Assembly: GCA_014730255.1 (NCBI GenBank)
Contig: WJIQ01000236.1
Location: 1 to 58,719 of the forward strand
Reading direction: 5' to 3'
DNA length: 58,719 bases
Source of the DNA: a bacterium
GTDB lineage: Bacteria > Krumholzibacteriota > Krumholzibacteriia > LZORAL124-64-63
Positions 10,816 through 47,590 of the stretch are shown in pieces. Numbering within the stretch: the first letter of the stretch is position 1; each line of letters opens with the position of its first letter. The position numbers and the translations under genes were made by a program. The notes under the pieces were generated by a model. The model saw nothing but the letters and a program-made list of their open reading frames with translations, did no database searches and had not been told where the DNA came from.

Positions 10816-10913
10816 GGTGTCTCCGTCGGTCCACCGGATCTCTCGCGGCAGCGGGGCCGTGTGAAGGGACCGCAAGTCTAGCGTCAGCGAACGGCCAAGG
10901 CAAGCCCCTCGCG

Positions 10914-11591
10914 TCACGCGAGGCCGAGCCAGTCACCGAGCAGGAACTGCAAGCGACTGATGAGCAACGAGACACGCGACATGACCGCGTAGGCGAAGCT
11001 CGCCCCGAACGCCACCATGAGCAGCAGGAGCCCGGCCCGGGCGACGCCGCCCCGCGCGCGCCGGGCGGTGCGGGTGTAGGTGAAGTACGCCAGGCAGCAC
11101 GCCGTCCCGGCGACGATGACGCCCTGGTTGCCCGTCGCGATCCAGTCGATCGCCCCGGCGGGTGTGCGGATCACCAGCCCCGGGGCCACCGTCGCGTGGA
11201 TCTGCGCCAGGAAGTCCGAACGGACGGTGCGCACGAGGTTGTAGCCCAGGGTCGTACCCACCGCGAACGCGGTCGGCCAGCGGGCCAGCCAGGCCGCTCG
11301 CGGCCACAGCCGCAGCAGCATCAGCAGGCCGAGCGCCAGCGGGATGATCACCAGGGGATCCCGGTCGGGCAACGCGGCGGCCGGCTCGGTGACGCGGGCG
11401 GCCTCGGGCACCAGCTTGACCACCGCGTTGGGCCAGAGGGTCGACCAGAAGCCCAGGACCATCCAGTATCCGGCCGAGACGCCCACGAAGAGGTGCTCGG
11501 CGAACTTGTAGAACGGGTTGTCCCGCCACAGGAAGCTGAAGACCATGAGCGTCAACGCCGCCGCGATCCAGACCTCGAAGCTGGTGCTCAT
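10914..11591 (-). CDS. polytopic membrane protein, unknown family (225 aa)
   Basis: ORF 10914..11894 with the start moved to ATG 11589-11591, which overlaps the upstream stop (ATGA). Several hydrophobic helices, e.g. VWIAAALTLMVFSFLW and LVIIPLALGLLMLLRLW. No motif recognised. Confidence 0.6.
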   Translation of the reverse strand: MSTSFEVWIAAALTLMVFSFLWRDNPFYKFAEHLFVGVSAGYWMVLGFWSTLWPNAVVKLVPEAARVTEPAAALPDRDPLVIIPLALGLLMLLRLWPRAAWLARWPTAFAVGTTLGYNLVRTVRSDFLAQIHATVAPGLVIRTPAGAIDWIATGNQGVIVAGTACCLAYFTYTRTARRARGGVARAGLLLLMVAFGASFAYAVMSRVSLLISRLQFLLGDWLGLA

Positions 11592-12469
11592 GGCCGCTCC
11601 TCCGGCTGGCGGCGCCCGGGGCGGCGCAGGTACGCGACGTTGCCCAGCACCAGGAACAGCAGGATGACCACGTGGGCGACCGTCTGCGGACCCATCACCC
11701 GGCCCGCGCGGCGCGGGAATCCGGCCCCGGGGTGCCGATCGGCCAGGGCCGCCTCGTACTCGCTGGCCCCCTTCAGGCCCCCGAGGATGCCCTGGAGCTG
11801 CGACGGGAAGTAGGCCAGGTACTCGGGGGTCCCGATGCCGGTGCAACCGCCGACCACCGGCACGCCGCTGGGGTCGCCCCCGTAGAGGATCCACTCCTTG
11901 AGGCCGGGCGTGCCGCTGGAGAGCGAGACCACCAGGGGGAAATCGCCCAGGCGCCGGTAGCCGCGCAGACCGGGCAGGTCGCCCAGGCGCCGCCCCTCGG
12001 CGTCCCCGGCGAACATGGCCGCCATCTCCTGCCGCATGGCGTTGATGACCATGCGGCCCCCGGCCTTGTAGCCGAGCATGGTCCAGTCGCGGCCGGCGAC
12101 GAGCTCCGGGAAGTCCCGCTCGAGGACCTCGACCCGCAGCCGCTCGTACATCGCCGGGCCCTCGGGGAACAGCGTCACGAACACCGGATGGGCGCCGCGC
12201 AGCAGGACGTGCCGGGTGATGGCGAAGGCCATCGGTTCGATCTCCGGCGCCGAGACCGGGCTGTAGTCCAGCGAGACCAGCACCGACTGGCCGGGCTCGA
12301 GCCGCTCGATGCGCTCGAAGACCGGACGGACGAACACCGATGGTTGATCGGGGAACAGCGGGCGCAGCACGACGCTCACGCCGACGGCCACCAGGAGCAC
12401 GAGGTACAGCCAGCGGCGGTCGAGTCGTCCGAGGCGCTCGGCGAGGCCGGTCCGCGACGGATCGCTCAT
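11588..12469 (-). CDS. membrane-anchored protein, unknown family (293 aa)
   Basis: ORF 11588..12592 with the start moved to ATG 12467-12469 (ATGA overlap with the upstream stop). N-terminal TM WLYLVLLVAVGVSVVL and C-terminal TM VAHVVILLFLVLGNVAYL flank a soluble domain of about 230 aa. Confidence 0.6.
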   Translation of the reverse strand: MSDPSRTGLAERLGRLDRRWLYLVLLVAVGVSVVLRPLFPDQPSVFVRPVFERIERLEPGQSVLVSLDYSPVSAPEIEPMAFAITRHVLLRGAHPVFVTLFPEGPAMYERLRVEVLERDFPELVAGRDWTMLGYKAGGRMVINAMRQEMAAMFAGDAEGRRLGDLPGLRGYRRLGDFPLVVSLSSGTPGLKEWILYGGDPSGVPVVGGCTGIGTPEYLAYFPSQLQGILGGLKGASEYEAALADRHPGAGFPRRAGRVMGPQTVAHVVILLFLVLGNVAYLRRPGRRQPEERP

Positions 12470-13173
12470 GCGGGACCTCCCGAGCGCTGGTCGCGACCCG
12501 CCAGGAGCCGCACCGTCAGCGCGATCACGCCGACGGCGATCCCGATGAGCACCGCGCGCTGGCCGGCCACGTTGGGCACGGCGAGGATCCACATGCTCAG
12601 CGTGTCGATGCGCAGGAACGCCAGTCCCGGCGGCAGCAGGTTGCTCAGCCAGGTGCCCAGCGGCGTGCGTCCGAGCAGCACGACGAACGCCGCCACCAGG
12701 AGCACCGACGATTCCACCGACCGGAGCCGGAAGGCCCGGTAGGCGGCCGAGGCGACGAAGAACGCCAGCAGCGCGAAGAGGGTGGACATGAGCGGCTCGT
12801 ACAGCCCGTCGAACACGGTGGTCAGCCAGGCCTCCGGATGGGTCACCGAGCCCTCCAGGCCGGCCGGACCACCGAGCTTCGCCAGTCCGACCACCAGGAC
12901 GGCGACGAACGACACCAGCGTCACGAGCGAGAACGCCCAGTCGGTCTGGCGGCGCACGACCTTCAGCAGGTGGACCCTGAGCAGGTTGGCCCCGCCGAGG
13001 ATGAAGGCGAAGACGGCGAGGATGTTGAACCAGACCGAGAAGTTGCGATCGATGAAGTCGAAGACGGCCAGGGGTCCGCCGGTCGCCTCGGCCTCCGGGC
13101 GCACGACCAGGGCCGTGACGATGAGCACGACGCCGACGGCGGTGGTGATGACGCGCGGGATGAGTCGCTTCAA
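12466..13173 (-). CDS. polytopic membrane protein, unknown family (235 aa)
   Basis: ORF 12466..13215. I prefer TTG at 13171-13173, preceded by GGAGGTG, 13 nt after the upstream stop. ATG at 13215 is an alternative. About 6 hydrophobic helices, e.g. VITTAVGVVLIVTALVV and WFNILAVFAFILGGANLL. Confidence 0.55.
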   Translation of the reverse strand: MKRLIPRVITTAVGVVLIVTALVVRPEAEATGGPLAVFDFIDRNFSVWFNILAVFAFILGGANLLRVHLLKVVRRQTDWAFSLVTLVSFVAVLVVGLAKLGGPAGLEGSVTHPEAWLTTVFDGLYEPLMSTLFALLAFFVASAAYRAFRLRSVESSVLLVAAFVVLLGRTPLGTWLSNLLPPGLAFLRIDTLSMWILAVPNVAGQRAVLIGIAVGVIALTVRLLAGRDQRSGGPA

Positions 13174-13186
13174 GGCCGCACCTCCA

Positions 13187-13993
13187 TCATCCCTCCAGGA
13201 ACGCGAGCAGCGCATCGCGCACCCACGCGAGCTGCGCCCAGCCGGACACGTCGGCCACGGTGACCATCAGCGCCCCGATCAGCAGCACCCCGATGGTCAC
13301 GTCCTTGACCAGGTCCTGGCCGCGCAGGCTGCCGAGCCGATCGACGTCGCCGGTGAGGTACGCCTCGGCGGCGAAGAACTCCTCGCCGATGAGCACGTGG
13401 TCGCAGGCGGCGACCAGGAAGGGCAGCTGGTGGCTCATGGCCGTCCCGGCCACCTGCATCGCCCCCACCTGGGCCCCCGCCTCGGCCAGCAGGAGCGACT
13501 CGGCGTAGAACGCCCCCTGCAGGAAGATCGCGGCCGGGCGTCGCCGCGCGATCACCCCGTCGACCCGGGCGGCGAATCCGAACTGGTCGTCCGAGACGTA
13601 CGAGACCATGTCGGGCACGAAATCGTCGGAACGGCCGGCCGAGGCGTAGCTCTCGCGCAGCACCTCGCGGCCGGCGGTCAGGACCAGGCTGCGGTCGGTC
13701 GGCATGATCAGCTCGCAGCCGTGGCGCGCGGTCATCTCGCCGACCGCGCCGAGGATGCCGAGGCTGGCAACGGTCTGCACGTCGTCGAGGTCCTGGGTCC
13801 CGGCGACGTACATCACCGGACGCCCCATCTCGGTCGCTCGCCCGACGGCCTCGGACATCGCCTCGAGCCCGGCGATGCGCCGCCGTGGCGCCGGCCCGTG
13901 CCGCCGGGCCCGGCGCATCCCCCACAGCAGCGCGGCGGTCGCGAGCAGCAGCACGACGACGAGGTCCCAGTGGACACCCGCGAGCCAGGCCAT
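13187..13993 (-). CDS. bitopic membrane protein, unknown family (268 aa)
   Basis: This is the 3' part of ORF 13187..15157. ATG at 13991-13993 shares one nucleotide with the upstream TGA (GTGATGG) and has GGAGGTGA upstream. N-terminal TM DLVVVLLLATAALLWGM and C-terminal TM VTIGVLLIGALMVTVADV. Confidence 0.6.
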   Translation of the reverse strand: MAWLAGVHWDLVVVLLLATAALLWGMRRARRHGPAPRRRIAGLEAMSEAVGRATEMGRPVMYVAGTQDLDDVQTVASLGILGAVGEMTARHGCELIMPTDRSLVLTAGREVLRESYASAGRSDDFVPDMVSYVSDDQFGFAARVDGVIARRRPAAIFLQGAFYAESLLLAEAGAQVGAMQVAGTAMSHQLPFLVAACDHVLIGEEFFAAEAYLTGDVDRLGSLRGQDLVKDVTIGVLLIGALMVTVADVSGWAQLAWVRDALLAFLEG

Positions 13994-15132
13994 CACGTCA
14001 CCTCCGGGGTCTCGGGGCCAGCCAGCACCTCGAGGTTCGCACGCGGCACGACCGCCGTCACCCCCGCATCCAGATCGACGTGGGCGACCAGGCAGCGGGC
14101 GCCGCTCTCGACGCGGACCGGCTCGTCGGGCAGCGCGCCGACCCGGCCGCGATGGCCGAACCACGGCGCGCGGACCACCTGCACCGTGCAGCCCGGGCTC
14201 AACGCCGGCGGCCGCGTCGCCGCCGGCCGCGCGTCCGGGACCTCGTCCAGCGGGACGATCGCCTCCGGCCGCAGGGCGCCGGCCCGGACCCGCGTGTGGC
14301 CGCTCAGCCCCACCACCCGGCCGGCATGGCTCCGCAGCAGGTCGAACGTCTCCTCGGTCATGGGCACCCGCCCGAACCCCCCGACGATGACCAGGGTGAA
14401 CGGAGCAGCGAGCCCGGTGGTGTCGGCGAGGACCGTTTCCCGACCGAGCCACCGCGCGAGCGCGGCGTCGTGGACCCCGCCGGTGACGAGTCCGGCGACG
14501 CCCAGCTCGGTCGCGCGCGCGAGCGCCGCGGCGTCCACGACCGCCCCGCCGAGCAGGATCGTCCCGGCGTGACGTTCGTCCAGGGCCGCCGCCTCGAGCG
14601 TCGCGTCCGCCCGCCCGACCGCCGGCACCAGCTCGGCCGCGACCTCGCCGCCGACCCCGAAGACCCCGGCCACCCGGGCCGCCCAGCCCGCCACCGTCAC
14701 CCCGCGCTCGGGCTCGCACGCGGTCACGATCCCGGGCAGGAACGCGCGCACCTCGACCAGGTCGCCGGGCTCCTCCAGCAGGATCCGACCGGTGTGCGCC
14801 GAGACGGCCGCGATCGTCCCGGCCACCGGCGCCCGGCACTCGCTGGCCAGCAGTCCGAAGAACCCGCGCGACCGGGCCAGCGGCTCGCCGGCGGCGACCT
14901 CGTCGCCCACCGCCCGGAGCATCGACCGGGGCAGCTCCGCCCCGGGGATGTCCAGCTGCACCGCCGCGTTCACCGTGTGCATCGCGCCACGGGTGCGCGC
15001 GCTGGCCACCACGGTGTCGCGGTCGACGCGGTCTCCCACCTCGAGCAGCACCCGCCCGCGGATCGGCAGCTCGCGCCGCCGTTCCAGGACGGCCCGTGGC
15101 TCGACGAACGGTCCCTGCCGGCCGGCGCTCAT
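13993..15132 (-). CDS. barrel-sandwich-hybrid-like plus KOW-like domain protein (379 aa)
   Basis: This is the 3' part of ORF 13993..15990. ATG at 15130-15132 overlaps the upstream stop (ATGA). N-terminal segments LLEVGDRVDRDTVVASA and VGDEVAAGEPLA...VAGTIAAV resemble lipoyl/biotinyl-type hybrid barrels. C-terminal GCTVQVVRAPWFGHRGRVGAL resembles a KOW motif. Confidence 0.6.
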   Translation of the reverse strand: MSAGRQGPFVEPRAVLERRRELPIRGRVLLEVGDRVDRDTVVASARTRGAMHTVNAAVQLDIPGAELPRSMLRAVGDEVAAGEPLARSRGFFGLLASECRAPVAGTIAAVSAHTGRILLEEPGDLVEVRAFLPGIVTACEPERGVTVAGWAARVAGVFGVGGEVAAELVPAVGRADATLEAAALDERHAGTILLGGAVVDAAALARATELGVAGLVTGGVHDAALARWLGRETVLADTTGLAAPFTLVIVGGFGRVPMTEETFDLLRSHAGRVVGLSGHTRVRAGALRPEAIVPLDEVPDARPAATRPPALSPGCTVQVVRAPWFGHRGRVGALPDEPVRVESGARCLVAHVDLDAGVTAVVPRANLEVLAGPETPEVT

Positions 15133-17285
15133 GCCAGATCCCGTCCCGGCAGCGCATCGAGCGTGGTCAGCCACTGATGGACCAGCTCGCGCCGGGCCAG
15201 CTCCGCGGCGGGCCACGGCAGGCGGGGTCCACGGCCATCGAGGATCACGCCGGCCGGACCGCCGGCGACCACCGTGCGCACGGCCCGGTCCGGACCGGCT
15301 CCGAAATCCCAGCCCGGCGCCGGCACGATCTCGAGGTCCGCCTCCCCGTCGGGCAGCGGCAGGCTGGTCAGCTCGCCTCCGGTCAGGGCCACCTCGCGAT
15401 CCGAGCGTGGGGCCGCGCCCCCATGCAGTCGGATCGTGGCCAGGGGATCGCCCGGCCCGGGCTCGCGCCCGGCGACCGGGCCGACGACGGTGCCGAGGAC
15501 GACCACCGCATCGCTGGCCAGGACCTGCGCGGCGGCCTCCGTGTCCAGCCGTCCGAGCGCGCCGAGGTGCGGCATGATGAAGACCGAGTCGACGGCCAGG
15601 CGGGTGACGCCCTGGGGCCGGCAGGCATCGATGAGGATCGCCGCGGCCTGGCGACGGCGCGGCGCGTGCGCCAGCGGTCCTCCGGAGCCGAGGATCAGAT
15701 CGACCGCGGCCCAGTCGATCCCCGTCTCGGGCACCTCGGTGACCCTCAGCGCCTCGATGCCCCGTGGGCCGTCGCCACGACCATGCAGCGGCTGCAGCGC
15801 CTCGGCGTGATCGACGATCGCCAGCCGGACGGCCTCGCGCGCGGCGGCCTGCTCGAGCAGCAGATCCTCCGGGGTCTGCGGCAAGGTCGTCGGCCGGATC
15901 ATCTTGTTGCGGACGCGGTCTCGCAGCTCGTCCTCGGTCACGGCCATGGGCAGCCACCGGCCCACCCGCACCCAGCCCGCGCGCTCGCACACGGCGCCGA
16001 GGCTGAAGCTGAGCCCGAGGTTCGCCGACACGCTCCGGTAGACCTCACCGCCACGGACGCTGAACACGTCGCAGGTCGCGCCGCCGAGGTCGATGGCGAC
16101 CGCCTCGCCGTGCTCGGCCGCGAGGAGCTCGAGCGCCTCGCCGAAGCCGACGGGCGTCGGCAGGACGCGCGACCGGCAGAGTTCCTGCAACCGGGGGTAC
16201 CCCGGGGCGCGCACCATCACGTGACGCAGGAAGACGTCGTGCAGCACGCGGCGCACCGGCCCGAGGTTCTCGGTCTCGAGATCGGGTCGGAGATTCGGCG
16301 CCACGACCGCCTCGGCGACGGGATCGAGGACCTCCAGCACCGCCTCGGCGGCATCGGCGTTGCCGGCGTAGACCACCGGCAACCGCCCGCGACCCCAGCG
16401 CGGGTTCAGCTCGGCCGCGGCGAGCTGCTCGGCCAGGGCGACCACCTGATCGATGGCCCCGCCGTCGGTGCCGCCGGCGAGCAGGACCATGTCGGGCCGG
16501 CTCTCGCGCAGGCGCTCGATGCGCTCGGTGGGGGTGCCGGCGTCGTTCCAGGCCACCACGTCGGCCAGGATCGCCCCGGCGCCGAGCGCGGCCCGCTCGG
16601 CACTCGCGGCGGTCATGGTCCGCACGAGGCCCAGCACGACCATCTGCAGCCCGCCACCGGCGCTGCTGGTGGCCAGGAGATGGCCGACCCCACGGTCGGG
16701 GCCCGTCGCGCGCTCGATGCGACCGTCGTGGTCGAGGATCGCGTGGCCGGTCTGCTCCTGCAAGAGACGCAGGGCCGTGTCGACGCCGACCATCACGTCC
16801 TCGGTCGGCGCCTCGACCGTCGTGGGGGCCTCCGCCCGTCCCCCGAGCCGGTAGCGGCCGTCGCAGTGCTTGATGAGCACGGCCTTGGTGGTGGTCGAGC
16901 CGCAGTCGATCACCACGTACGCCGCGTCGGGAACCGTCTCGGTCGGCTCCGGCTGGGCCAGCGCGACCGGCCGCCCCTCGAGATGCGCGAGCAGGCGCTC
17001 GACCGATCCCCGGACCTCGAAGATCTGCGCCAGCCGGTCCCAGTCGCCGCCCTCGCTGGCCAGATGGACCAGCGGCGACAGGACGCGCATGGCCTGGCCG
17101 CCGAGGAAGGCGGCCGGACGCAGGCACTCGAGGGTGACGATCGCGGGCGCGGTCAAGCCGCGCCGCTGCAGCCCACTGGCCAGCCGGGCGAGCAGTGCGT
17201 CGTCCGCGGCGGAGAGGCCGGCGGGAAGGCACGCTTCGCGCGGCGCTCGGCCGTCGTCCGGAGAGCTGCGCGGATCCGGCGGCAT
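15129..17285 (-). CDS. GlmL/MutL-family ASKHA (actin/Hsp70-fold) ATPase-like protein with terminal extensions (718 aa)
   Basis: This is the 3' part of ORF 15129..18602. ATG at 17283-17285 lies 2 nt after the acyl-CoA dehydrogenase stop. Motifs VVIDCGSTTTKAVL, ATSSAGGGLQMVV, LLAGGTDGG and AIDLGGATCDVFS match the duplicated phosphate/adenosine motifs of the glutamate mutase accessory protein GlmL (MutL). Confidence 0.7.
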   Translation of the reverse strand: MPPDPRSSPDDGRAPREACLPAGLSAADDALLARLASGLQRRGLTAPAIVTLECLRPAAFLGGQAMRVLSPLVHLASEGGDWDRLAQIFEVRGSVERLLAHLEGRPVALAQPEPTETVPDAAYVVIDCGSTTTKAVLIKHCDGRYRLGGRAEAPTTVEAPTEDVMVGVDTALRLLQEQTGHAILDHDGRIERATGPDRGVGHLLATSSAGGGLQMVVLGLVRTMTAASAERAALGAGAILADVVAWNDAGTPTERIERLRESRPDMVLLAGGTDGGAIDQVVALAEQLAAAELNPRWGRGRLPVVYAGNADAAEAVLEVLDPVAEAVVAPNLRPDLETENLGPVRRVLHDVFLRHVMVRAPGYPRLQELCRSRVLPTPVGFGEALELLAAEHGEAVAIDLGGATCDVFSVRGGEVYRSVSANLGLSFSLGAVCERAGWVRVGRWLPMAVTEDELRDRVRNKMIRPTTLPQTPEDLLLEQAAAREAVRLAIVDHAEALQPLHGRGDGPRGIEALRVTEVPETGIDWAAVDLILGSGGPLAHAPRRRQAAAILIDACRPQGVTRLAVDSVFIMPHLGALGRLDTEAAAQVLASDAVVVLGTVVGPVAGREPGPGDPLATIRLHGGAAPRSDREVALTGGELTSLPLPDGEADLEIVPAPGWDFGAGPDRAVRTVVAGGPAGVILDGRGPRLPWPAAELARRELVHQWLTTLDALPGRDLA

Positions 17286-17287
17286 GG

Positions 17288-18943
17288 TCAGTCGCGCTGC
17301 TTGAGGATGTCGCCCACCGCGGCGAGATCGCTCCACAGGCCGGTCAGCGCGGCGGGATCGAGCCGCTCGGCCAGCGCCTGGGCCAGCTCGCAGCCTCGCG
17401 TCGCCGCGTCGGTGTCCCCGGCCTCGGCGAAACCGCCGGTGACCATGTGGGCCGCGTCGAGCACCGCCTGCATCGCCTGGCGCGCGAACGCCCGGCCCAT
17501 CGCCGCGTAGAGATCCGCATCGGGAGCCGACTCGCCGCGCAAGCGGGCCGCCTTGCGGGACAGGGATGACGCGACCTCGCAGCGGCACATCACGTCCGCG
17601 AGCAGGAACTGGGCGATCTGGTGGCGCACGGTCTTGCTCCGGTGCGCGTCCAGCACGACGTCGGCGAGGCCACGGAGAGCAGCGGCCACGACGTCGCAGC
17701 CGCAGTCGCCGGCCTCGGCGTGCATCGCGTCGCAATCGGCGGCCATCTCCTCGTAGAATGCACCCCTGGTCGAGACGGTCTTCTTCCAGCGGAAGACGCC
17801 GATGATGCTCTGCTGGATCTCGCTGGTTCCCTCGTAGATGGAGGTGATGCGCACGTCGCGCCGGATCTTCTCGACCATGTACTCGCGGCTGTAGCCGTAT
17901 CCGCCGAGCGCCTGCACGGCGGCGTCGGCCGCGCGGTTGCCGGCCTCGGTGCACCAGAGTTTGGCCACCGAGCCCTCGACCTGCAGGCCCTGCTCGCCCT
18001 CGTCGATGCGCAGGGCGATGTCCTCGGCGTAGGCTCGGCCCGCGGCCAGATCGATCCAGTGCGGGACGATCAGCTTGAGCAGGAAGCCCTCCTTCTCCAC
18101 GAGGGGCGCGCCGAACTGGATGCGCTCCTTGCCGTAGGTCAGGGCGCGGTCGATGGCCGACTGGCCGCAGCCGAGGCCGAAGGCGCCCACCATCAGGCGG
18201 GTGTAGCCGAAGACCGCGTTGGCCTGCTTGAGCCCCTCGCCCTCGACTCCGCCGACGAGGTTGGCCACCGGAACCTCGGCGTCCTCGAGGATGACCGAGG
18301 CCGTGTTGGAGGCGCGGATGCCGTGCTTCTCCTCCTTCTTGCCCACCGTCAGGCCCTCGATCCCCTTCTCGACGATGAAGAACGAGGGGCCGCCGGGCGT
18401 CTTGGCGAGGATCGTGTAGAGATCGGCCACCCCGCCGTTGGTGATCCACTGCTTGGCGCCGTTCAGACGGTAGGCGGTCACCTCGCCGCCCGTGTCGGTG
18501 ATCGGCTCGGCCGTGGTCTTGAGCGCGGCCACGTTGCTGCCCGCCTCCGGCTCGGTGACCCCATAGGCGACGATCAGGCCGCCGGCGATGCGGGTCAACC
18601 ACTCCTGCTTCTGCTCGTCGGTGCCGCCGACCACGATCGGGTCGGTCCCGAGGCAGATGGCCAGGAAGGCCGTGGCCACACCCAGATCGACCGCGGCCAT
18701 CTCCTCGCTCACGCGGCAGATGTCGCGCGCGCCGCCCCCCAGTCCGCCCGCGCTCTCGGGCAAGAAGATCAGGTGCAGGCCGACGTCGGGCGACAGCAGC
18801 TTCTCGATGAGGTCGTGGGGGAAGACGTCCTGCTGATCGAGCTCGAGCACGCGCTCGTCCGGCAGTTCGCGCTGGGACACCTGCTTGAGGGTCTGGACGA
18901 CCATGTCGGTCATCTCGGGAGCCAGTCCGGCGGGTCGGGTCAT
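17288..18943 (-). CDS. acyl-CoA dehydrogenase family protein with extra C-terminal domain (551 aa)
   Basis: This is the 3' part of ORF 17288..20038. ATG at 18941-18943 with a GGAGGA RBS. ACAD-type segments include [32 protein letters not shown] and [33 protein letters not shown], followed by a helical extension of about 170 aa. Confidence 0.8.
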
Positions 18944-20403: not shown

Positions 20404-21093
20404 TCAGTATGCCCCCTTGCGCTCGATGACCGCCGGCAGCGTGCGTAGCAGGATCCCCGCGTCGAAACCCAGGCTGCGCCGACGGACGTATTCCTGATCG
20501 AGCTGCATCCACTCCTCGAAATCCAGCTGGCTGCGTCCGGAGACCTGCCAGAGGCACGTCAGACCCGGCCGGGCGATCAGTCGCCGGGCCTGCTCCGGCG
20601 TGTACTCGGCCACCTCGCGGGGGATCTGCGGCCGGGGGCCGACGATCGACATGTCCCCCACCAGGACGTTCCACAGCTGGGGGAACTCGTCGAGGCTGCT
20701 GCGGCGCAGGAAACGCCCCACGTTCGTGATGCGCGGATCGTCCTTGATCTTGAACGCGGCTCCGGAGGCCTCGTTCAGGTGGCTGAGCTCGTCCTTGCGG
20801 GTCTCCGCGTCCATGCTCATCGAGCGGAACTTGTGGCAGTGGAAGAGCCGGCCCCGCTCGCCGACGCGGACCTGGCGGAAGAGCACCGGACCGGGCGTCT
20901 CGAGCTTGATCATGACCATGATCAACGGCAGCAGGGGTAGCAGCAGCGTCAGACCGACCAGCGCCCCGCCGAGGTCGAAGGCCCGGCGCACGACGTGGTA
21001 GAGCACTCCCGGATCGTGGTCGTACCCCTCCCGAACGTCGGCGATCACCGCGTCGTAGCCACCGCGGTCGTCGTAGAAGTTGCCGAGGCTCAC
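20404..21093 (-). CDS. undecaprenyl-phosphate sugar phosphotransferase (small Bac_transf-type PGT)
   Basis: This is the 3' part of ORF 20404..22302. GTG at 21091-21093 overlaps the upstream stop (GTGA). Signature RSSLDEFPQLWNVLVGDMSIVGPRP and a single N-terminal TM. Confidence 0.8.
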   Translation of the reverse strand: MSLGNFYDDRGGYDAVIADVREGYDHDPGVLYHVVRRAFDLGGALVGLTLLLPLLPLIMVMIKLETPGPVLFRQVRVGERGRLFHCHKFRSMSMDAETRKDELSHLNEASGAAFKIKDDPRITNVGRFLRRSSLDEFPQLWNVLVGDMSIVGPRPQIPREVAEYTPEQARRLIARPGLTCLWQVSGRSQLDFEEWMQLDQEYVRRRSLGFDAGILLRTLPAVIERKGAY

Positions 21094-22694
21094 GGCTCGC
21101 CCCCCGGCCGCGCCGGGTCCCGGGTCCAGCGATCCAGCGTCACCCCGGGCCCGGCGTGGACCCGCACCAGGCGCCCCGCGCGCCGCAACGCATCGGGCAG
21201 GAGCCCGGCCGGATCGAGATCCCACGCCCGCGCGCTGAGGAACCACGCGGCGTCGTGGCCGGCGAGCTGGCGCGCGACCAGCGCATCGGCGTCCGCCGGC
21301 GTCGCGAGCCGGTCCTCGTCCCAGCAGCCGTACACCGGGCGGGCATCCTCGAGGTAGTAGCGGACCACCGGGCCGACCGTCGGCGAGAGCACCGGCGTAT
21401 CCGGCTCGCCGCGCGCGACCAGGGCGGCGACGGCGCCGCGGACGTCCTCCTTGGCGTAGTCGCGATCGAGGTAGAGGCCGAGCAGGGACATTACGCTGAG
21501 CACGACCAGGGCCGCGCCGAGGATCCGCCGCGGCCAGAGCGCCAGCCGCACCAGCCCACAGGACACCAGCGCCATCAGCGCCGGCCAGACCACCGCGACG
21601 TACCGCACGTTGAACGGCTTGACGTTGCGCACCGCCAGCAGGACGACGGCCACCAGCGGCACGACGATCCAGAGCAGGACGACCCAGCGTCGACGCCCGA
21701 GTCCGGTCAGGCCCATGAGCAGCGGGCCGGCGGCCGCCAGCGCCCCGGCGGTGATCACCGGCGCGTGCCGCACGACCGCGTCGATCCGATCGGGCTGGTG
21801 CAGCTCGGCGAGGGACGGCCCCAGCGAGAAGCCGTACATGAGCGCGAACGCCGAGAACGGGATCGCCCAGGGGCTGAAGGTCGTCTCGCCGCGAAGCGCG
21901 GCCCCGGTCTCGGCCCCCGGCACGACGCGCCCGACTTCCCAGATACCCGCGGCCTCCAGGAGCCAGGGCAGGGCCAGCAGCACGCCACCCCCGAGCGCCA
22001 GGCACCACAGCGACCACTCGCCCACGCGGCGCGGCCGGGCCGCCAGGAGGACCGTCAGACCGTAGGCCACCAGCAGGAGCACGAACGAGAAGTTGCTCAT
22101 CAGGCCGGCGCCCACCAGCAGGGCGAGCCCGATGGCACGGCCGGGCGTGATGCCGCGCTGGAGGATCGTCAGCAGCACGATGCCCGAGGCCGTGGCGAAG
22201 AGCATGACGAAGCTGTAACCGCGCGCCTCCTGCGCGTACCAGGCGGCGAACGGGCTGATCAGGGCCAGCAGAGCCGCCAGGCGCCCGGCGTCGCGGCCCC
22301 ACAGCCGACCCGCCAGGACGCCCACGAGCGGCACGGTGAGCGCCGAGGCCAGCGCCGCCGGCAGCCGCAGCATGAACGCCGTGTCCGCCAGCCGCAGGAG
22401 CGGCCAGGCGGCGGCATGGTACAGCGGCCCCTGGTAGGCGGCCAGGATGCGGGTCGCGAAGTCGGCGTCGCCCGCCGGGGCCACCAGCTGCCAGGTGAAG
22501 ACCTCGTCGACCCAGATCGACATGGCATCCAGCCGCAGCAGCCGCAGGAAGACGGCCGCCAGCCCGATCCCGAGCAGGAAGACGGCGCCGACGGTCCGCT
22601 CGCCGTCGTGGTCCTCGTCCACGAGCCAGCCCGCCGGTGGCACCAGCGATCCCTCGCCCGGCCGTCGCGTCGATCGCTGGTCAGTCAACGGCAC
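21090..22694 (-). CDS. GT-C fold glycosyltransferase (GT39/ArnT/PMT_2-like), polytopic membrane protein
   Basis: 534 aa with more than 10 TM helices. A first-loop acidic motif WVDEVFTW is typical of ArnT/PMT-like enzymes. GTG start; the exact start is uncertain (14-nt overlap with the upstream gene). Confidence 0.6.
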   Translation of the reverse strand: MPLTDQRSTRRPGEGSLVPPAGWLVDEDHDGERTVGAVFLLGIGLAAVFLRLLRLDAMSIWVDEVFTWQLVAPAGDADFATRILAAYQGPLYHAAAWPLLRLADTAFMLRLPAALASALTVPLVGVLAGRLWGRDAGRLAALLALISPFAAWYAQEARGYSFVMLFATASGIVLLTILQRGITPGRAIGLALLVGAGLMSNFSFVLLLVAYGLTVLLAARPRRVGEWSLWCLALGGGVLLALPWLLEAAGIWEVGRVVPGAETGAALRGETTFSPWAIPFSAFALMYGFSLGPSLAELHQPDRIDAVVRHAPVITAGALAAAGPLLMGLTGLGRRRWVVLLWIVVPLVAVVLLAVRNVKPFNVRYVAVVWPALMALVSCGLVRLALWPRRILGAALVVLSVMSLLGLYLDRDYAKEDVRGAVAALVARGEPDTPVLSPTVGPVVRYYLEDARPVYGCWDEDRLATPADADALVARQLAGHDAAWFLSARAWDLDPAGLLPDALRRAGRLVRVHAGPGVTLDRWTRDPARPGGEP

Positions 22695-23454
22695 GCTCCG
22701 TGGCCGGGGTGTACTCGCGCAGGTTGGCCGCGATGTTGCCCACGGGAAGCTTGGTGGTCATCATCACGGGGATCCGACGCTCGTCGGCCGTGAGATAGAT
22801 CATCAGGTCGCCCTCGTGCTTGAACAGGCCCTCGCCGACCATGACCGGCTGGATGACGAAGCAGTCGAATGTGCCGAAGTCCGTCTCCACCGCCTCCTGG
22901 CGGTGCACGATCACGCGCATGTCGTACGACTCGCGAGAGCTGTGTGCCGAGAAGAGTACGTCTTCGCCCACCTCCAGGTCCAGCGTCCTGACGTAATAGA
23001 AGGCCGACAGGACGTCGTGCACGCCGGAAGGGACGTCGTACTCCTTGCCGTTGTGGTAGCGGGCCTTGCCGGCCTCGTGATCGAACTCGATCTCGACCGT
23101 CTTCTTGTACGGCCCCTCCCGCAGGCGCTTCATGAAGTACCGGCTGAACAGGCGCTGCTCGTCGACGTAGCTCACCACCTTGTCGCGCACGCGGAATATG
23201 CCCGAGAAGAACCCGTTGCTCCGGGCCGTGCTCTCGACACGGTAGCAGGACGAGCCCTCGAAATCGACCATGCCGACGATCTCGAGCACCCCCTCGCCGG
23301 CGTTGATCACGCCATAGTCGATGGAGAAGACCATCCGCTCGCCGACCCCGAACGGCCGGGACGGCGAGGGCTGCTCGCCGTCGGCCCGGGTTCCGTGGGC
23401 GGCCGTGAGCGCGAGGATGACCAGCAGGCTGCGGGACAGGGTAGGGTGTATCAT
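22681..23454 (-). CDS. DUF3108-like secreted protein (257 aa)
   Basis: ORF 22681..23682 with the start moved to ATG 23452-23454 (GGAGGAG RBS). Signal peptide LLVILALTAAHG. The pattern ERMVFSIDYGVINAGEGVLEI...YRVESTARSNGFFSGIFRVRD resembles DUF3108. Confidence 0.55.
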   Translation of the reverse strand: MIHPTLSRSLLVILALTAAHGTRADGEQPSPSRPFGVGERMVFSIDYGVINAGEGVLEIVGMVDFEGSSCYRVESTARSNGFFSGIFRVRDKVVSYVDEQRLFSRYFMKRLREGPYKKTVEIEFDHEAGKARYHNGKEYDVPSGVHDVLSAFYYVRTLDLEVGEDVLFSAHSSRESYDMRVIVHRQEAVETDFGTFDCFVIQPVMVGEGLFKHEGDLMIYLTADERRIPVMMTTKLPVGNIAANLREYTPATERAVD

Positions 23455-23530
23455 GGCTCCTCCTGCAGGGATGCGACGACGTTTCCTGGCGCCAACAGTC
23501 CCGGCGGCGGCCCGGTTCCCGGCGTGGACG

Positions 23531-24691
23531 TCACACCGGAGCCGGGGGGGCGAACGGATGCGCCTGCAGTGCCTGGAGTACCCGTGCGGGCACCAGATCG
23601 GGCAGGCAGATGAAGGCGTCGCACTGGTGGCGATCGCAGGGATGGCAGGCCGGACGGGTCGCCAGGACCCGGTACGGACCATGCCCCTCGTACGGGAACC
23701 ATATCTCCGGCGCGGTGGGACCGAACAGCGCGAGCGTGGGCACCCGCATGCCGACGGCCGCGTGCATGATGCCGCCGTCGACGGTGACCAGGCGCCGGGC
23801 CGCCGCGACCACGGCGAGCGCCTCGGGAAGCGCCAGCACCGGCAGGACCCCCCCGCGGCCGGCCGGAATCGCCCCGGCCAGCGCGCGCCCCACCTCGGGC
23901 CGACCCGGCGGCTGCAGCACGACCGGCGTCTCGCCGGCTCCGGCGAGCTCGCCGGCCACCGTCCGCCAGTGCTCGAGCGGCCACTCCTTGGTGGGCCAGG
24001 TCGCCCCCGGTGCCAGCAGCGTGAACGCCCCGGACGCAGCGTCGAGCTGCTCGAGCTGGGCGGTCACCGACCGGTCCAGGGGCGGTCGGGCGAGGCGTGG
24101 TCCGATCAGGCCGCCCTGCCGCGCCTCGGCGAGCCAGTCCGTGGCCGGCCGCCCGTCGAGCTCCAGCGGAGCGAGGCGCTGCAGGTGATCGGCGAGCCCC
24201 CCTCCCCCGGTCAGCCGCTCGACCAGGGTGCGGACGGCTCCCGGCACGCGCGCGACCCGGTGGGTGTACAGCCGCCCGCGACTGCGGCTCTCCGTCCCGC
24301 CGATCCGACGGGGAATGCCCGCGAGGGCGAGCAGCCAGGCGCTGCGAGGATTGAAGAACAGGTCCACCGCCAGGTCGTAACGCTCCCGACGCAACGCGCG
24401 CACGGTCGCGACCGTCCCCCGCGCCGGGGTGACGTTGGTCGCCACGGCCGCTGCCCTGGCGCGGGCATCGGCACCGCGTCGCCGGGCGCCGAGCGCGTGC
24501 ACGCGCGCGACGTCCGGCTGTCCGGCCAGCACCGTCGCGTGCGACGCCTCGCACAGCACGTCGATCCGGAGATCCGGGTCGCCGCGGCGCAGCATCTCGA
24601 TCACCACGGTCGACATCACGACGTCGCCCAGGTACCGCAGGCGCGTGACCAGGACCCGGCGCAGGGGGCGTCCGTCCAGGCGCCAGCTCAT
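23531..24691 (-). CDS. glycosyltransferase family 9 (heptosyltransferase-like)
   Basis: RVLVTRLRYLGDVVMSTVV and VDGGIMHAAVGMRVPTLALFGPT are GT9 signatures. ATGA overlap with the gmhB stop. Confidence 0.75.
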   Translation of the reverse strand: MSWRLDGRPLRRVLVTRLRYLGDVVMSTVVIEMLRRGDPDLRIDVLCEASHATVLAGQPDVARVHALGARRRGADARARAAAVATNVTPARGTVATVRALRRERYDLAVDLFFNPRSAWLLALAGIPRRIGGTESRSRGRLYTHRVARVPGAVRTLVERLTGGGGLADHLQRLAPLELDGRPATDWLAEARQGGLIGPRLARPPLDRSVTAQLEQLDAASGAFTLLAPGATWPTKEWPLEHWRTVAGELAGAGETPVVLQPPGRPEVGRALAGAIPAGRGGVLPVLALPEALAVVAAARRLVTVDGGIMHAAVGMRVPTLALFGPTAPEIWFPYEGHGPYRVLATRPACHPCDRHQCDAFICLPDLVPARVLQALQAHPFAPPAPV

Positions 24692-25275
24692 GGCCGGTCC
24701 TCCAGCGCGGTCGCGATGGCGGCCGCGAGGTCGGGCCGCACGAGCACGCCCTCGCGATCGACCAGGCGCCGCCGTTCATCCGCGCCGTGGCCGGTGAGCA
24801 CGAGGATCCCGCGCAGGCCCGCGGCCCTGGCCAGGTCGACATCGGAGACCTTGTCACCGATCACCCAGGACCGCGCCGGGTCCCAGAAGAACTCGCGGGC
24901 CGCCTCGTCCAGCAGGCCGGTGCGCGGCTTGCGGCAGGCGCAGCCGTCCTGCGGCGCGTGGGGACAGTAGTAGAAGGCATCCAGCGGAGCATCGGCCGCG
25001 CGCAGGAGCTCGTCCAGGCGGGTCATGACCGCGTCCAGCTCCGCGCGCGCGAAACGGCCGCGCCCGAGGCCCGACTGGTTGGAGACCCCGATCAGCCGGT
25101 AGCCGGCCGCGCGCGCGCGTCGCAGCGCCCCCGCGGCTCCGGGCACGAGTTCGACCTGCGCAGGGTCGGCGAGGTAATCGCGGTCGACGTTGAGGCATCC
25201 GTCGCGGTCCAGGAACAGGGTCGGACGCGGCGTCGCATCACGCGCGGGCGGCTCGATGTCGGGCCATCGCGTCAT
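24688..25275 (-). CDS. gmhB: D-glycero-D-manno-heptose 1,7-bisphosphate phosphatase
   Basis: This is the 3' part of ORF 24688..26124. ATG at 25273-25275 with an ATGA overlap. HAD motif FLDRDGCLN and the GmhB Zn-loop CPHAPQDGCACRKP. Confidence 0.8.
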   Translation of the reverse strand: MTRWPDIEPPARDATPRPTLFLDRDGCLNVDRDYLADPAQVELVPGAAGALRRARAAGYRLIGVSNQSGLGRGRFARAELDAVMTRLDELLRAADAPLDAFYYCPHAPQDGCACRKPRTGLLDEAAREFFWDPARSWVIGDKVSDVDLARAAGLRGILVLTGHGADERRRLVDREGVLVRPDLAAAIATALEDRP

Positions 25276-26381
25276 GGGGCCCCTCCGTCGGGCGCACGGT
25301 CGAGCAGCTGCTCGAGGATCCCGACGACCCGCTCGGCGGTGATCGTCTCGAGGCAGAAACGGGGCTGGTCGCACTCGCGCCGGAAGCACGGCTGGCACGG
25401 GAAGCCGTCGGCCGCCAGGGCCAGCGCGCGTGGTCCGCGCGGCGCGGTCCAGGTCACGCTGCTCGACCCGAACAGGCCCAGCGTCGGCAACCCCAGCGCC
25501 GCGGACAGGTGCATCACGCCGCTGTCGTTGCCGACGTACGCCTCGGCCGCGCGCAGCCACGCGATCAGCTCGGGCAACGACGTGCGCCCGGTCAGGTCGA
25601 CCACCCCCGGCCCGGACGTCGGCGCGTCGTGCCACGGCAGGTCGGCCGTCCGGGCCCGCAACGCGCTCGCCAGCTCCCGGCTCTGGGGATCGCCGGTCAG
25701 CGCCACCCGCCGCCCGCAGCGCCCCACGGCCAGCCGCAACCAGACGGCCTGGTTGTCCACCGGCCACACCTTGGCCGGACCGTACGTCGCGCCGGGCGCC
25801 AGCACCCAGAGCGGAGGTCCCGGTTCGAGCACGCGCGGGGCGATCGCCTCGAGCGCGGGCCAGCGGGGGGACCGGTCGCCGGGTGCCGGCGTCGGCAGGG
25901 TCCCGCCCAGCTCGGCGACGACCGCCGAGGCCAGGTCCCGCAGCTCGTCCGCATGGTGGCGGGAGCGGGGCGGACGGGTCGTGGCAACCGGAGGGGTGAG
26001 CAGCCACGACCGGCCACCCGTCGCCTCGCCCACCCGCACGGGGATGCCCGCCAGACGCGCGGCGAGGGCCGCACGCAGCGACGGGGGCCCGAGCACCACC
26101 GCGTCGACTCCGAGCCGTCGCCACTCACGGGCCAGCCGCACCAGGCCGGCCGTTCCGGCGTGCCGTCCGTCGCGCTGGTAACAGTGCACGCCGGTCAGCC
26201 TGGGGTCGCCCTCGACGAGGGGCGACCAGCGGCGTCGGACCGACACGTGGATCGCGTACGGCCGCCCCGCACCGTCGCGGGCGGCGACGAGGTCGCCGAG
26301 CAGGTCGGAGGCCATGACCACGTCTCCGAGCCAGTTGGGCAGGGCGACGAGGATCGAGCGCGGACCGTCCGGGCCGGTCAT
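25272..26381 (-). CDS. glycosyltransferase family 9 (heptosyltransferase II/WaaF-like)
   Basis: ILVALPNWLGDVVMASDL and GNDSGVMHLSAALGLPTLGLFG are GT9 signatures. ATGA overlaps at both ends. Confidence 0.75.
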   Translation of the reverse strand: MTGPDGPRSILVALPNWLGDVVMASDLLGDLVAARDGAGRPYAIHVSVRRRWSPLVEGDPRLTGVHCYQRDGRHAGTAGLVRLAREWRRLGVDAVVLGPPSLRAALAARLAGIPVRVGEATGGRSWLLTPPVATTRPPRSRHHADELRDLASAVVAELGGTLPTPAPGDRSPRWPALEAIAPRVLEPGPPLWVLAPGATYGPAKVWPVDNQAVWLRLAVGRCGRRVALTGDPQSRELASALRARTADLPWHDAPTSGPGVVDLTGRTSLPELIAWLRAAEAYVGNDSGVMHLSAALGLPTLGLFGSSSVTWTAPRGPRALALAADGFPCQPCFRRECDQPRFCLETITAERVVGILEQLLDRAPDGGAP

Positions 26382-27526
26382 GCGCCGGGCGCCGGCAGCG
26401 GCCCCGAACCGGGCGCCAGGTCGGGATCGTCGGCCCCACCGTCGGGCGCGGCGTCACCGGGCCCGGCGTCGCGCGTCACCTCGCCCACGGTGTCCATCAG
26501 GGTGGCGATGTCCACCTTCTCGCCGCGCGCGATGCGCAGCATGGCGGCCCGCGCGCCCGTCGGCTCCCAGGCCGGCTCGACGTGCGACCCGAACAGCCCG
26601 ACCGTCGGCACGCGCCGCGCGACCGCCAGATGCAGGAGATCCGTGTTGCCGGCGAGGAACAGATCGCATTGCGCCACGAGCAGGAGCGTGTCCAGCAGCG
26701 TGTCGCGATTGAAGGCCGGCGGCACCGGCGAGGTGAGCTCGGACTCGAGGCGTGCGCGGCGATCTTCCTGGCCGGGTACGCAGAGCGGCAGGATCCGGCA
26801 GGAGACCTGCGTCTTGAGCTGACCGGCGATGAACAGGAGATTCTGCGGCGAGACCGCCCGGCCGGAACGGTCCGGGCCCGGGTCGATCCCGACCAGCCAT
26901 TCGTCGGGTCTCGGCTTGTTGAAGTGCACGAGCTGGGCGACCTGCCGGACCTTGTCCCGCGGCAGCGGCCACGCCGTGCGGAAGGGCTGATCCTCCAGGC
27001 CCAGGAAGGGCGCCAGCTGGAGCATCCGGTCGCCGTGGTACCGGGTGCCGTCACCGGCGCGCAGCTCGAGGTTGATGGCCGGCCAGGCCCCGTCGTGCGA
27101 CGGTCCGAGGCGCATGGCCGCCCCGCTGCCCAGCGCCAGGTTCTCCAGGGCCGGGCACGGCTCGTTCGCCACGATCATCGCCACGTCGTAGCCCGTCTGC
27201 GCGAGCGATCGCTGCAGCGACCGGTAGGCCGGCTTCCAGCCGCTGAGCTGCTTCTCGCCGTAGACCAGGACCTGCCGGGCGAGTCCGCTGGGGATGACCA
27301 GCGGCGCGAACGCCTCCGGCACCAGGAAGTCGATGGACGCCCCGGGCCAGCGGCGGCGCATCGCCGCCAGCAGCGGCGCGTGGAACTGCAGCGCGGCGAG
27401 GTCGGCATCGACCAGCACCAGCACCCGCGAGGAATCGTGGATCTGCCCCGGCACCCGGAAGGCGGGCGATTCCCGGTGGCCGGACAGCGCTTGCTTGAGC
27501 TTCTCGAGCACGGGCATCCATCCCAT
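26378..27526 (-). CDS. divergent glycosyltransferase family 9-like protein
   Basis: LFLAGNTDLLHLAVARRVPTVGLFG is a GT9-like C-terminal signature, and the N-terminal half is divergent. The start could be ATG 27526 or 27517. Confidence 0.6.
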   Translation of the reverse strand: MGWMPVLEKLKQALSGHRESPAFRVPGQIHDSSRVLVLVDADLAALQFHAPLLAAMRRRWPGASIDFLVPEAFAPLVIPSGLARQVLVYGEKQLSGWKPAYRSLQRSLAQTGYDVAMIVANEPCPALENLALGSGAAMRLGPSHDGAWPAINLELRAGDGTRYHGDRMLQLAPFLGLEDQPFRTAWPLPRDKVRQVAQLVHFNKPRPDEWLVGIDPGPDRSGRAVSPQNLLFIAGQLKTQVSCRILPLCVPGQEDRRARLESELTSPVPPAFNRDTLLDTLLLVAQCDLFLAGNTDLLHLAVARRVPTVGLFGSHVEPAWEPTGARAAMLRIARGEKVDIATLMDTVGEVTRDAGPGDAAPDGGADDPDLAPGSGPLPAPGA

Positions 27527-39296: not shown

Positions 39297-39410
39297 GCAG
39301 GTCCTCCTGTATAGGCGCAGGCGCGTTCTCGGGGCGAACATTCGAGGCCGGCCGCGTTCCCGCGACACGGGGCGCCGACCCTCGTGATGGCTCCACTCCA
39401 GAAGATAATG

Positions 39411-46516: not shown

Positions 46517-47590
46517 TCAGGACACTTGCAGCAGGCTGTTCGAGCCACCGAACTCGTTGGTCACGTTGTGCGCGTTGTGCGGATCGGGCAACCACACGCC
46601 GTCGACGATGAACCGGTACTGGTGCGGACCGGGCTGCACCGGCACGACGCACTCCCACCGGCCGTCCTCGCGGCGATAGAGCGGCGTTCCCTGTCGCGAC
46701 CAGTCGTTGAACGACCCGGTCAACCGGACGTCCTTCGCCCGCGGGAAGTCCGCCACGAACCGCACGCCCTCCGGCGTGATCTCCGGACCATGCAGCAGCG
46801 CGGTCCAGTGATCCAGCGCCGGCACCGTCAGGTCGACCGCCTGATCGGTCACCTCCCGCGCGAGATCCATGAAGTCTCGCGCCCCTCGCGAGCGCGGATC
46901 GTGATCGATGACCGGGATCCCGTGCTCGGCCGCCTCGCGCAGGCGCACGGTCGGATGGATGATCGTCGCCAGGAGCGTGTCGCCGTACACGGCACCGAGC
47001 TCCTCGCGCATCGAACGGGCGTACCGCGAGCGGACGTCGTAATTGGAGAGCAACAGGCGCACGGCGACCTCGTGTCCGCGCCGATCCCGCAGCACGTCCA
47101 GGGTCTCGTGCAGCTTCGTGACCGCCTGGCGGCTGTACGTGCTCGCGTCCACCGGTACGATCACCTCGCCGCTGGCCAGGAGCGCGTTGAAGGTCAGGAT
47201 CCCGACGGCTGGCGGGCAGTCGATCAGGATCACGTCGTACGCGAGATCCGACCGGCGCAGCGTGTCGCGCAGACGATTCTCACGCCCCTCGACCCCGGCG
47301 AGCCGGGCCTCGACGGCACTCAACTCGACCCCGGCCGGCACCAGGTGCAGGCGCGGCTCGACCTCGACCCGCGCGTCCTCGACGAGCACGTCGCTGGTCA
47401 GCAGCAGGTCGTAGGTGGAGAGGCTGAAATCCTGCTCGTGGAGTCCGAGCGCGAGGGTGGCATGGCCCTGGGGATCGCTGTCGATGACGAGCACCTGCTG
47501 TCCCATGCGGGCCAGCGCGGCCGCGAGGTTGACGGCGGTGGTCGTCTTTCCGCATCCGCCCTTCTGATTCGCGAGGGCGATGACTCTCAT
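46517..47590 (-). CDS. ParA/Soj-type P-loop ATPase fused to a C-terminal CBM48/AMPK-beta glycogen-binding-like domain (357 aa)
   Basis: Deviant Walker A ALANQKGGCGKTTTAVNLAAALA, plus VIDSDPQGHAT and ILIDCPP. The C-terminal region (about 46520-46777) reads VRFVADFPRAKDVRLTGSFNDWSRQGTPLYRREDGRWECVVPVQPGPHQYRFIVDGVWLPDP...NSLLQV, matching the GSFNxW...YxF(I/V)VDGxW pattern. ATG start with an AAGGA RBS. Confidence 0.85.
   Translation of the reverse strand: MRVIALANQKGGCGKTTTAVNLAAALARMGQQVLVIDSDPQGHATLALGLHEQDFSLSTYDLLLTSDVLVEDARVEVEPRLHLVPAGVELSAVEARLAGVEGRENRLRDTLRRSDLAYDVILIDCPPAVGILTFNALLASGEVIVPVDASTYSRQAVTKLHETLDVLRDRRGHEVAVRLLLSNYDVRSRYARSMREELGAVYGDTLLATIIHPTVRLREAAEHGIPVIDHDPRSRGARDFMDLAREVTDQAVDLTVPALDHWTALLHGPEITPEGVRFVADFPRAKDVRLTGSFNDWSRQGTPLYRREDGRWECVVPVQPGPHQYRFIVDGVWLPDPHNAHNVTNEFGGSNSLLQVS

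Follow-up and report, generated by a model that had tools for sequence, protein, structure and literature searches.

Six joined genes of a Krumholzibacteriota contig combine a DUF6754 membrane-protein quartet with a MutL/GlmL-type ATPase and its partner

Contig WJIQ01000236.1 of a Krumholzibacteriota genome (assembly GCA_014730255.1), whose full length of 58,719 nucleotides is referred to below as the window, carries on its minus strand, at positions 10914-17285, a run of six closely joined genes that are here termed g1 to g6 in their order of reading. The first encodes a small helical module (g0) fused to a long ATPase of the MutL/GlmL type, the second a soluble partner of this ATPase, and the remaining four a quartet of membrane proteins that opens with a member of the family DUF6754. 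All six are genuine genes, coupled to one another and conserved, and their products are as follows.

15129-17285, minus strand: g1, 718 residues, fusion of g0 with a MutL/GlmL-type ASKHA protein; uninterrupted open reading frame (ORF)
16971-17228, minus strand: g0 module, approximately residues 20-105 of g1, a small helical protein (bounds from the phmmer domain table)
15129-16919, minus strand: long MutL/GlmL-type ASKHA (actin/Hsp70-fold) ATPase, residues 123-718 of g1
13993-15132, minus strand: g2, 379 residues, soluble partner of the ATPase; uninterrupted ORF
13187-13993, minus strand: g3, 268 residues, DUF6754 protein; uninterrupted ORF
12466-13173, minus strand: g4, 235 residues, TTG start, six transmembrane (TM) helices
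11588-12469, minus strand: g5, 293 residues, a TM helix at each end
10914-11591, minus strand: g6, 225 residues, roughly six TM helices; terminal gene of the unit

An earlier description of this DNA that was made from its letters and translations (the sequence-only reading) had recognized the six joined genes, all of which are confirmed as ORFs that read through, and had placed their junctions correctly: ATGA overlaps join g1 to g2, g4 to g5 and g5 to g6, the g2/g3 boundary reads TGATG, and a 13-nucleotide spacer containing GGAGG separates g3 from g4. The TTG start of g4 is backed by the homologues, whose consensus M-R-R-x-x-P begins at the same point. For comparison, the ORFs of 83 related loci (cited below by number, as L001) were searched with the window proteins. 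Median intergenic gaps in these loci are 3-17 nucleotides by crude start calls, with 10-17 nucleotides inside the quartet and 16 nucleotides at the g2/g3 junction. Because every one of the genes has homologues in the same order at dozens of loci in many phyla, the gene set lies far beyond what chance would assemble. Downstream of g6, about 100 nucleotides separate the unit from the next ATG, which belongs to a TPR protein. An inverted repeat at 10907-10923 (CCTCGCG-TGA-CGCGAGG) would form a hairpin over the stop codon of g6; no T-run accompanies it, and it may mark the end of the operon. The GC content of the window is 72%, and a scan for promoters and terminators gave no usable signal there.

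The ATPase portion of g1 matches the Pfam MutL profile PF13941 over residues 123-591 with 369.9 bits (E-value 2e-110, cut-off 27), while falling below the NCBIfam cut-offs for GlmL (216.5 against 475), Or-4 (203.8 against 600) and glmL_fam (135.3 against 204). It continues into a conserved C-terminal extension of about 125 residues, through which homologues align as far as approximately residue 713. The ASKHA motifs on which the sequence-only reading had based its assignment (DCGSTTTK, SSAGGGLQM, AGGTDGG and DLGGATCD) are at least 95% conserved among 33 homologues, and the phosphate-1, phosphate-2 and adenosine motifs are intact. There is also a weak similarity to BcrAD_BadFG (E-value 0.003), and a PDB sequence search with g1 retrieved no relative. 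MutL/GlmL has been presented as the reactivating chaperone of glutamate mutase (PMC4682846). As already remarked in the sequence-only reading, a mutase subunit is missing nearby: no mutase or B12-binding family was found among the scanned ORFs of the window, no B12 mutase was found among approximately 40 of its ORFs that were scanned or already identified, and neither family type appears in the neighborhoods of L001, L084 and L085.

The fused nature of g1 had previously been overlooked. In most other lineages g0 is a separate ORF of about 110-140 residues, and its fusion to the ATPase is a property of the clade to which the window belongs. It has no Pfam match. A hidden Markov model (HMM) of g0 finds matches in 28 loci that contain the quartet and in none of the quartet-less loci L084-L086. 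The module is encoded between g2 and g3 in L071 and L073 and directly before DUF6754 in L035, L048, L050 and L051, loci in which no MutL gene was found; elsewhere it stands ahead of the ATPase. Because g0 is restricted to quartet loci, and because it adjoins either the ATPase or DUF6754, it is the leading candidate for a component that physically connects the two groups of proteins.

Downstream of the ATPase, the soluble protein g2 yields a confident AlphaFold model (predicted local distance difference test, pLDDT, 88.9) in which beta-rich domains at the N-terminus are followed by a small alpha/beta domain and, at the C-terminus, by a barrel. The N-terminal domains are of the barrel-sandwich type, with a sub-threshold match to RnfC_N (18.3 against 25.6 bits) and with precomputed RnfC_N or BSH_YknX matches in some homologues. 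The C-terminal barrel superimposes on the KOW5 domain of Spt5 (7okx_Z, 8p4e_Z) with a TM-score of 0.80 and a root-mean-square deviation of 1.2-1.4 Å over 57 columns in Foldseek, where the top match of g2 is NusG (2xhc, E-value 2.8e-5) and matches to biotinyl domains are weak. The proposal of barrel-sandwich segments followed by a KOW-like motif is therefore borne out structurally, with Pfam support below the cut-off; the Pfam KOW model itself gives no match at E <= 0.1, and a PDB sequence search with g2 found no relative.

Two more specific identities of g2 were considered and rejected. An NqrA- or RnfC-like protein is not indicated, as neither is among the top 50 Foldseek matches, which consist instead of KOW-type barrels and weak biotinyl domains. 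Nor is g2 a lipoyl or biotinyl carrier or the swinging arm of a cofactor, because lysine is absent: there are 0 lysines in its 379 residues, and the alignment has no invariant-lysine column. With regard to gene order, g2 follows the MutL-like gene wherever both are complete. The two are fused into a single protein in L074 and L079, and because these fusions are 69% identical, linker included, the fusion is an inherited one. In the Zixibacteria-type loci L018, L037 and L043, a gene of 250 codons (L037 2943-3698) intervenes between the two, encoding a protein with a signal peptide, a C-terminal TM anchor and no Pfam match. In L068 (4170-7455), from a metagenome-assembled genome (MAG) of Phycisphaerales, the MutL-like gene is separated from g2 by genes on the other strand for four tandem PEP-CTERM-type proteins (VPAPGALALLGLAG...RRRR).

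The first membrane protein, g3, is a clear member of DUF6754 (PF20539; 312.1 bits, cut-off 27, E-value 3e-93, profile positions 5-249 of 257). Its AlphaFold model (pLDDT 93) shows a six-stranded parallel alpha/beta domain resembling a Rossmann fold, flanked by one TM helix at the N-terminus and another at the C-terminus. According to family-averaged hydropathy and positive-inside counts, both termini lie outside and the domain between the two helices lies in the cytoplasm. The N-out orientation is confirmed by relatives that carry N-terminal signal peptides and N-terminal ectodomains, the latter being fn3 domains or PQQ-type beta-propellers at the N-terminus of other DUF6754 proteins. Across 79 sequences, 38 positions of g3 are invariant, many of them acidic, and these residues fall for the most part between a predicted strand and the helix that comes after it.

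The other three membrane proteins have no match in Pfam or NCBIfam. The same hydropathy and positive-inside analysis predicts six TM helices in g4 with both termini inside, and its conserved motif is LLAFFxxSAAYRAFR. In g5, two TM helices are predicted to flank a periplasmic domain of about 220 residues, leaving both termini in the cytoplasm; its 305 homologues are all unnamed and without Pfam domains. The orientation of the roughly six-TM protein g6 is uncertain, and its conserved motif is SFLYKDNPFYKFAEH. Conserved polar or charged residues occur in both six-TM subunits. Cysteine is absent from g4 and occurs once in g5. Thus, of the two bitopic and two polytopic proteins described in the sequence-only reading, the polytopic pair is recovered as g4 and g6, whereas the supposedly bitopic g3 and g5 have a TM helix at both ends.

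Searches for more distant kinship of the quartet were similarly unproductive. Among 135 divergent members of the g4, g5 and g6 families, Pfam gave noise, with sub-threshold permease matches in 1-4 of the 135, and unusually long variants likewise returned noise only. PDB sequence searches with profiles of g3, g4, g5 and g6 found no relative. A paralogous or inverted-repeat architecture was rejected, as hhalign probabilities were at most 11% for g3 against g5, g4 against g6 and the halves of g4 and of g6. Scans of all six proteins against Pfam and NCBIfam detected no ABC_tran and no other P-loop or Walker-type transport ATPase, and PADLOC models matched none of the six, so that no known anti-phage defense system is indicated. 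At the level of sequence, then, no membrane subunit falls within a catalogued transporter, respiratory or defense family; DUF6754 is the only family found for the four, in agreement with the original expectation that they would not map to a characterized one.

DUF6754 itself is widespread, with more than 5000 relatives in the protein collection and at least 596 matches in the species-level genome set, almost all of them in MAGs. Carriers include Gemmatimonadota, Krumholzibacteriota, Zixibacteria, Ignavibacteria, Planctomycetota, Marinimicrobia, Cloacimonadota, Fermentibacteria, Stahlbacteria and Eisenbacteria, and the quartet as a whole is spread over more than 10 phyla, mostly uncultured. One of the loci, L059, belongs to a MAG assigned to Singulisphaera sp. 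GP187. The order g3-g4-g5-g6 is invariant in all 83 loci, and the quartet is about 50% identical across phyla. Many loci of the Zixibacteria and Ignavibacteria types contain two or three quartets in tandem, and up to three such tandem quartets occur with at most one ATPase gene. The quartets of one genome have diverged unevenly, with a median identity between paralogues of 54% for g3, 46% for g4, 43% for g6 and 35.5% for g5, a gradient consistent with a docking side in the cytoplasm that is conserved and a side in the periplasm that varies. In triple-quartet arrays (L002 17740-21191 and 10-11 other loci), the next gene encodes a K/R-rich protein of about 115 residues and the one after it pyruvate phosphate dikinase, an arrangement that could represent either lineage synteny or a functional hint.

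The association of the ATPase with the quartet is recurrent and facultative. Where 5 kb or more of upstream sequence is available, 22 of 41 loci have a MutL-like gene. The ATPase stands beside the quartet in several phyla, in either the same or the divergent direction, and so the synteny between GlmL-like and membrane genes that was anticipated from the window extends well beyond it. Conversely, L084 and L085 encode the ATPase and g2 without a quartet inside the sequenced flanks. It is therefore highly probable that the locus is built from separable modules, namely the quartet, the pair of ATPase and g2, and the g0 linker.

The unit is preceded in the window by a further gene that had been missed.

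17288-18943, minus strand: acyl-CoA dehydrogenase, 551 residues, with a C-terminal extension of about 170 residues; Pfam Acyl-CoA_dh_N/M/1

The dehydrogenase starts at an ATG at 18943 with GGAGG 7 nucleotides upstream, and its stop codon lies 2 nucleotides before the ATG of g1; in the lineage of the window, therefore, the coupled unit comprises seven genes. Co-directional adjacency of dehydrogenase and module is found only in the window's own clade (L001, L004, L005, L007, L029, L032 and L054), and the dehydrogenase is probably a lineage-specific passenger. L058, from a Stahlbacteria MAG, has two ORFs resembling acyl-CoA dehydrogenases that diverge from a quartet. A further variable companion is a two-TM protein of about 150 residues, with a weak match to the bacterial PH domain, that is encoded ahead of g0 in 21 loci (including L007 794-1270 and L048 8631-9134). 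It is absent from the window, and in the close relatives L007 and L054 it lies between the dehydrogenase and g0.

The wider surroundings of the module in the window consist of housekeeping and envelope-glycan genes. Just upstream, at 20404-27526 on the minus strand, are a Bac_transf sugar transferase, PMT_2, DUF3108 and three Glyco_transf_9 paralogues, and between this run and the dehydrogenase are genes for AcpS and a PhzF-family protein. Farther away, at 34533-39368 on the minus strand, is a gingipain-like Peptidase_C25 protein of 1612 residues with FG-GAP repeats and a C-terminal FlgD_ig domain, a layout typical of secreted proteases in the FCB group. At 46520-47590, also on the minus strand, an unusual pairing is encoded in which a glycogen-binding module (CBM48/AMPK1_CBM) and a ParA/MinD-type ATPase (AAA_31, CbiA) form one fusion protein; conceivably, this protein might position glycogen granules. 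Apart from one tRNA, the window and 11 related loci contain no riboswitch or other Rfam element.

The favored interpretation of the locus as a whole, which is offered tentatively and falls somewhat short of an even chance, is that separable modules cooperate, with the quartet acting in transport or relay and the ATPase docking onto it. In this scheme g3, g4, g5 and g6 would form a 1:1:1:1 complex in the inner membrane with about 16 TM helices, in which g3 would display its conserved Rossmann-like domain to the cytoplasm, g5 would expose its fast-evolving domain to the periplasm, and g4 together with g6 would form the path through the membrane. The complex would move or relay something across the inner membrane, with periplasmic specificity set by g5 and by the fn3 or beta-propeller ectodomains that some g3 proteins carry. 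Together, the ATPase and g2 would be a shared, dissociable accessory that docks through g0 and, at the expense of ATP, remodels the cytoplasmic domain of DUF6754 or resets it, a step modeled by analogy on GlmL-type and reactivase chaperones, which act on Rossmann-type subunits of B12 enzymes. As a mechanism this proposal is doubtful, and it is unlikely that the DUF6754 quartet constitutes a new class of translocation machine that is gated or energized by a linker-tethered ASKHA ATPase serving several paralogous modules.

Several observations weigh against the proposed cooperation. Nearly half of the well-flanked quartets (19 of 41) have no adjacent ATPase. Foldseek matches of the g3 domain are generic (Rossmann, SIS, PGK and RCK), with E-values of 0.01 or higher and TM-scores below 0.4, and the domain has no B12-binding signature, which leaves the comparison with reactivases an analogy only. 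In L016, a read-through of g5 into g6 (15313-17028) conflicts with the predicted N-out topology of g6, although this fusion carries little weight as a Rosetta stone because it is a single case, in which the stop codon of g5 has been lost. Finally, g4, g5 and g6, which were compared by sequence, may have a remote kinship with some known transporter fold.

Four other explanations were weighed, each of which is weakened by the distribution data. The sequence-only reading had proposed an ATP-driven membrane machine, and its recognition of a linkage between the ATPase and membrane genes of no known family stands. What does not stand is the single obligate assembly of all six subunits. Such a machine of fixed stoichiometry would account for the translational coupling in the window, for the same seven-gene order throughout its clade, for the order of ATPase, g2 and quartet in loci of Planctomycetota, Fermentibacteria and Marinimicrobia, and for the fusion of g0 to the ATPase. 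It is nevertheless decidedly unlikely, since the quartet so often occurs by itself, since as many as three quartets accompany one ATPase or none, since the ATPase and g2 occur alone in L084 and L085, and since no Walker-type or other transport-ATPase family was found; transport, moreover, enters this proposal as conjecture. A looser alternative, in which the quartet is a secondary transporter or ion-conducting complex independent of ATP and the MutL-like protein and g2 are a separate cytosolic chaperone or enzyme pair that happens to be encoded nearby, is rather unlikely. Each module does occur alone, two six-TM subunits with conserved polar or charged residues are what a secondary transporter might contain, and the variable periplasmic domain could be a tethered binding protein. 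However, mere proximity poorly explains an adjacency that recurs in distant phyla and in different orientations, a g0 that is confined to quartet loci although one clade has it joined to the ATPase, or a median gap of 16 nucleotides between g2 and g3.

The locus could also encode a transmembrane signaling system or envelope scaffold, in which the variable ectodomains would sense envelope components or bind to them and the ATPase would serve as a membrane-tethered cytoskeletal or assembly factor, in the manner of MreB, FtsA or PilM with their bitopic partners. The ASKHA fold, the swappable fn3 and beta-propeller ectodomains of DUF6754 and the position of the window locus among lipopolysaccharide and envelope genes are all consistent with this idea. 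It is quite improbable, given that polymerization is not known in the MutL family, that the envelope context is seen in one clade only, and that Pfam scans found no output domains such as kinases or cyclases. Least probable by far is a system of acyl-CoA or redox metabolism at the membrane, in which the dehydrogenase would pass electrons or substrate to the membrane proteins and the ASKHA protein would serve as an ATP-dependent activator of the BcrAD or HgdC type. The 2-nucleotide spacing of dehydrogenase and g1 and the synteny of the dehydrogenase in seven related loci would be explained by it, as would the weak resemblance of g1 to BcrAD_BadFG and the two dehydrogenase-like ORFs beside the L058 quartet, but about 75 of the 83 loci have no dehydrogenase, none of the six proteins matches an iron-sulfur, heme or flavin family, and g4 and g5 have just a single cysteine between them.

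Should the quartet be a translocation machine that an ASKHA ATPase gates or energizes, it would be the first membrane system for transport or relay with such a protein, instead of a P-loop, P-type or rotary ATPase, coupled to it. An actin-fold ATPase acting for a transporter or relay would embody a new principle of energy coupling and would also reveal a second role, unrelated to B12, for the poorly understood MutL/GlmL family. Even if the quartet should be a distant version of some known transporter, its recognition would annotate thousands of metagenomic genes now labeled hypothetical. In either case this is a strictly syntenic module, often triplicated, in many environmentally abundant and mostly uncultured lineages, among them Zixibacteria, Marinimicrobia, Gemmatimonadota and Planctomycetota, and three of its four families are absent from Pfam and NCBIfam.

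With g4, g5 and g6 compared by sequence, the locus lies outside every known kind of system against which it could be tested, and a literature search returned nothing relevant on DUF6754/PF20539 or on PF13941/GlmL in connection with membranes. Its nearest known counterparts are GlmL/MutL, the accessory protein of glutamate (methylaspartate) mutase (PF13941; NF040745), and the related Or-4 of the ornithine pathway, with which g1 shares the PF13941 core, matched over its whole length, and the ASKHA motifs. The g1 protein differs from both in scoring below their NCBIfam cut-offs, in its extension of about 125 residues and in its obligate partner g2, and from GlmL in being associated with membrane genes instead of a B12 mutase, in the window as in the sampled neighborhoods. 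In the reactivases DdrAB/GdrAB and EutA, an actin-fold ATPase with a smaller partner acts on a Rossmann-type subunit of a B12-dependent client, and this likeness underlies the suggested remodeling of DUF6754, again as an analogy. No match to these reactivases in sequence or fold was obtained, and the putative client here would be a membrane protein that lacks a B12 signature.

A comparison can also be drawn with Rnf and Nqr, given the weak RnfC_N match in g2 and the presence of two roughly six-TM subunits of about 230 residues, which are possibly inserted in opposite orientations like RnfA and RnfE. No Rnf-Nqr family (RnfA/E, NqrD/E) was detected among the 135 g4, g5 and g6 sequences or in the PDB profile searches, and g4 and g6 show no mutual homology. 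Actin-fold proteins are known to dock on membrane proteins in PilM-PilN-PilO, FtsA and MreB-RodZ-MreC-MreD, and those systems resemble the present one in that a cytoplasmic ASKHA gene is linked to small membrane proteins carrying periplasmic domains. They differ in that none of them is matched in Pfam by the proteins described here, and in that the membrane partners at this locus include two six-TM subunits and proteins with a TM helix at both ends. ECF/ABC, TRAP and TTT systems are modular importers that rely on a shared energizer or a tethered binding protein. Although the locus contains no ABC_tran, DctQ/DctM, TctA/TctB or ECF family, and its ATPase is of the actin fold and not of the P-loop type, it shares with these importers an arrangement in which several paralogous membrane sets accompany no more than one ATPase gene, and in which the periplasmic domain varies while the cytoplasmic side is conserved.

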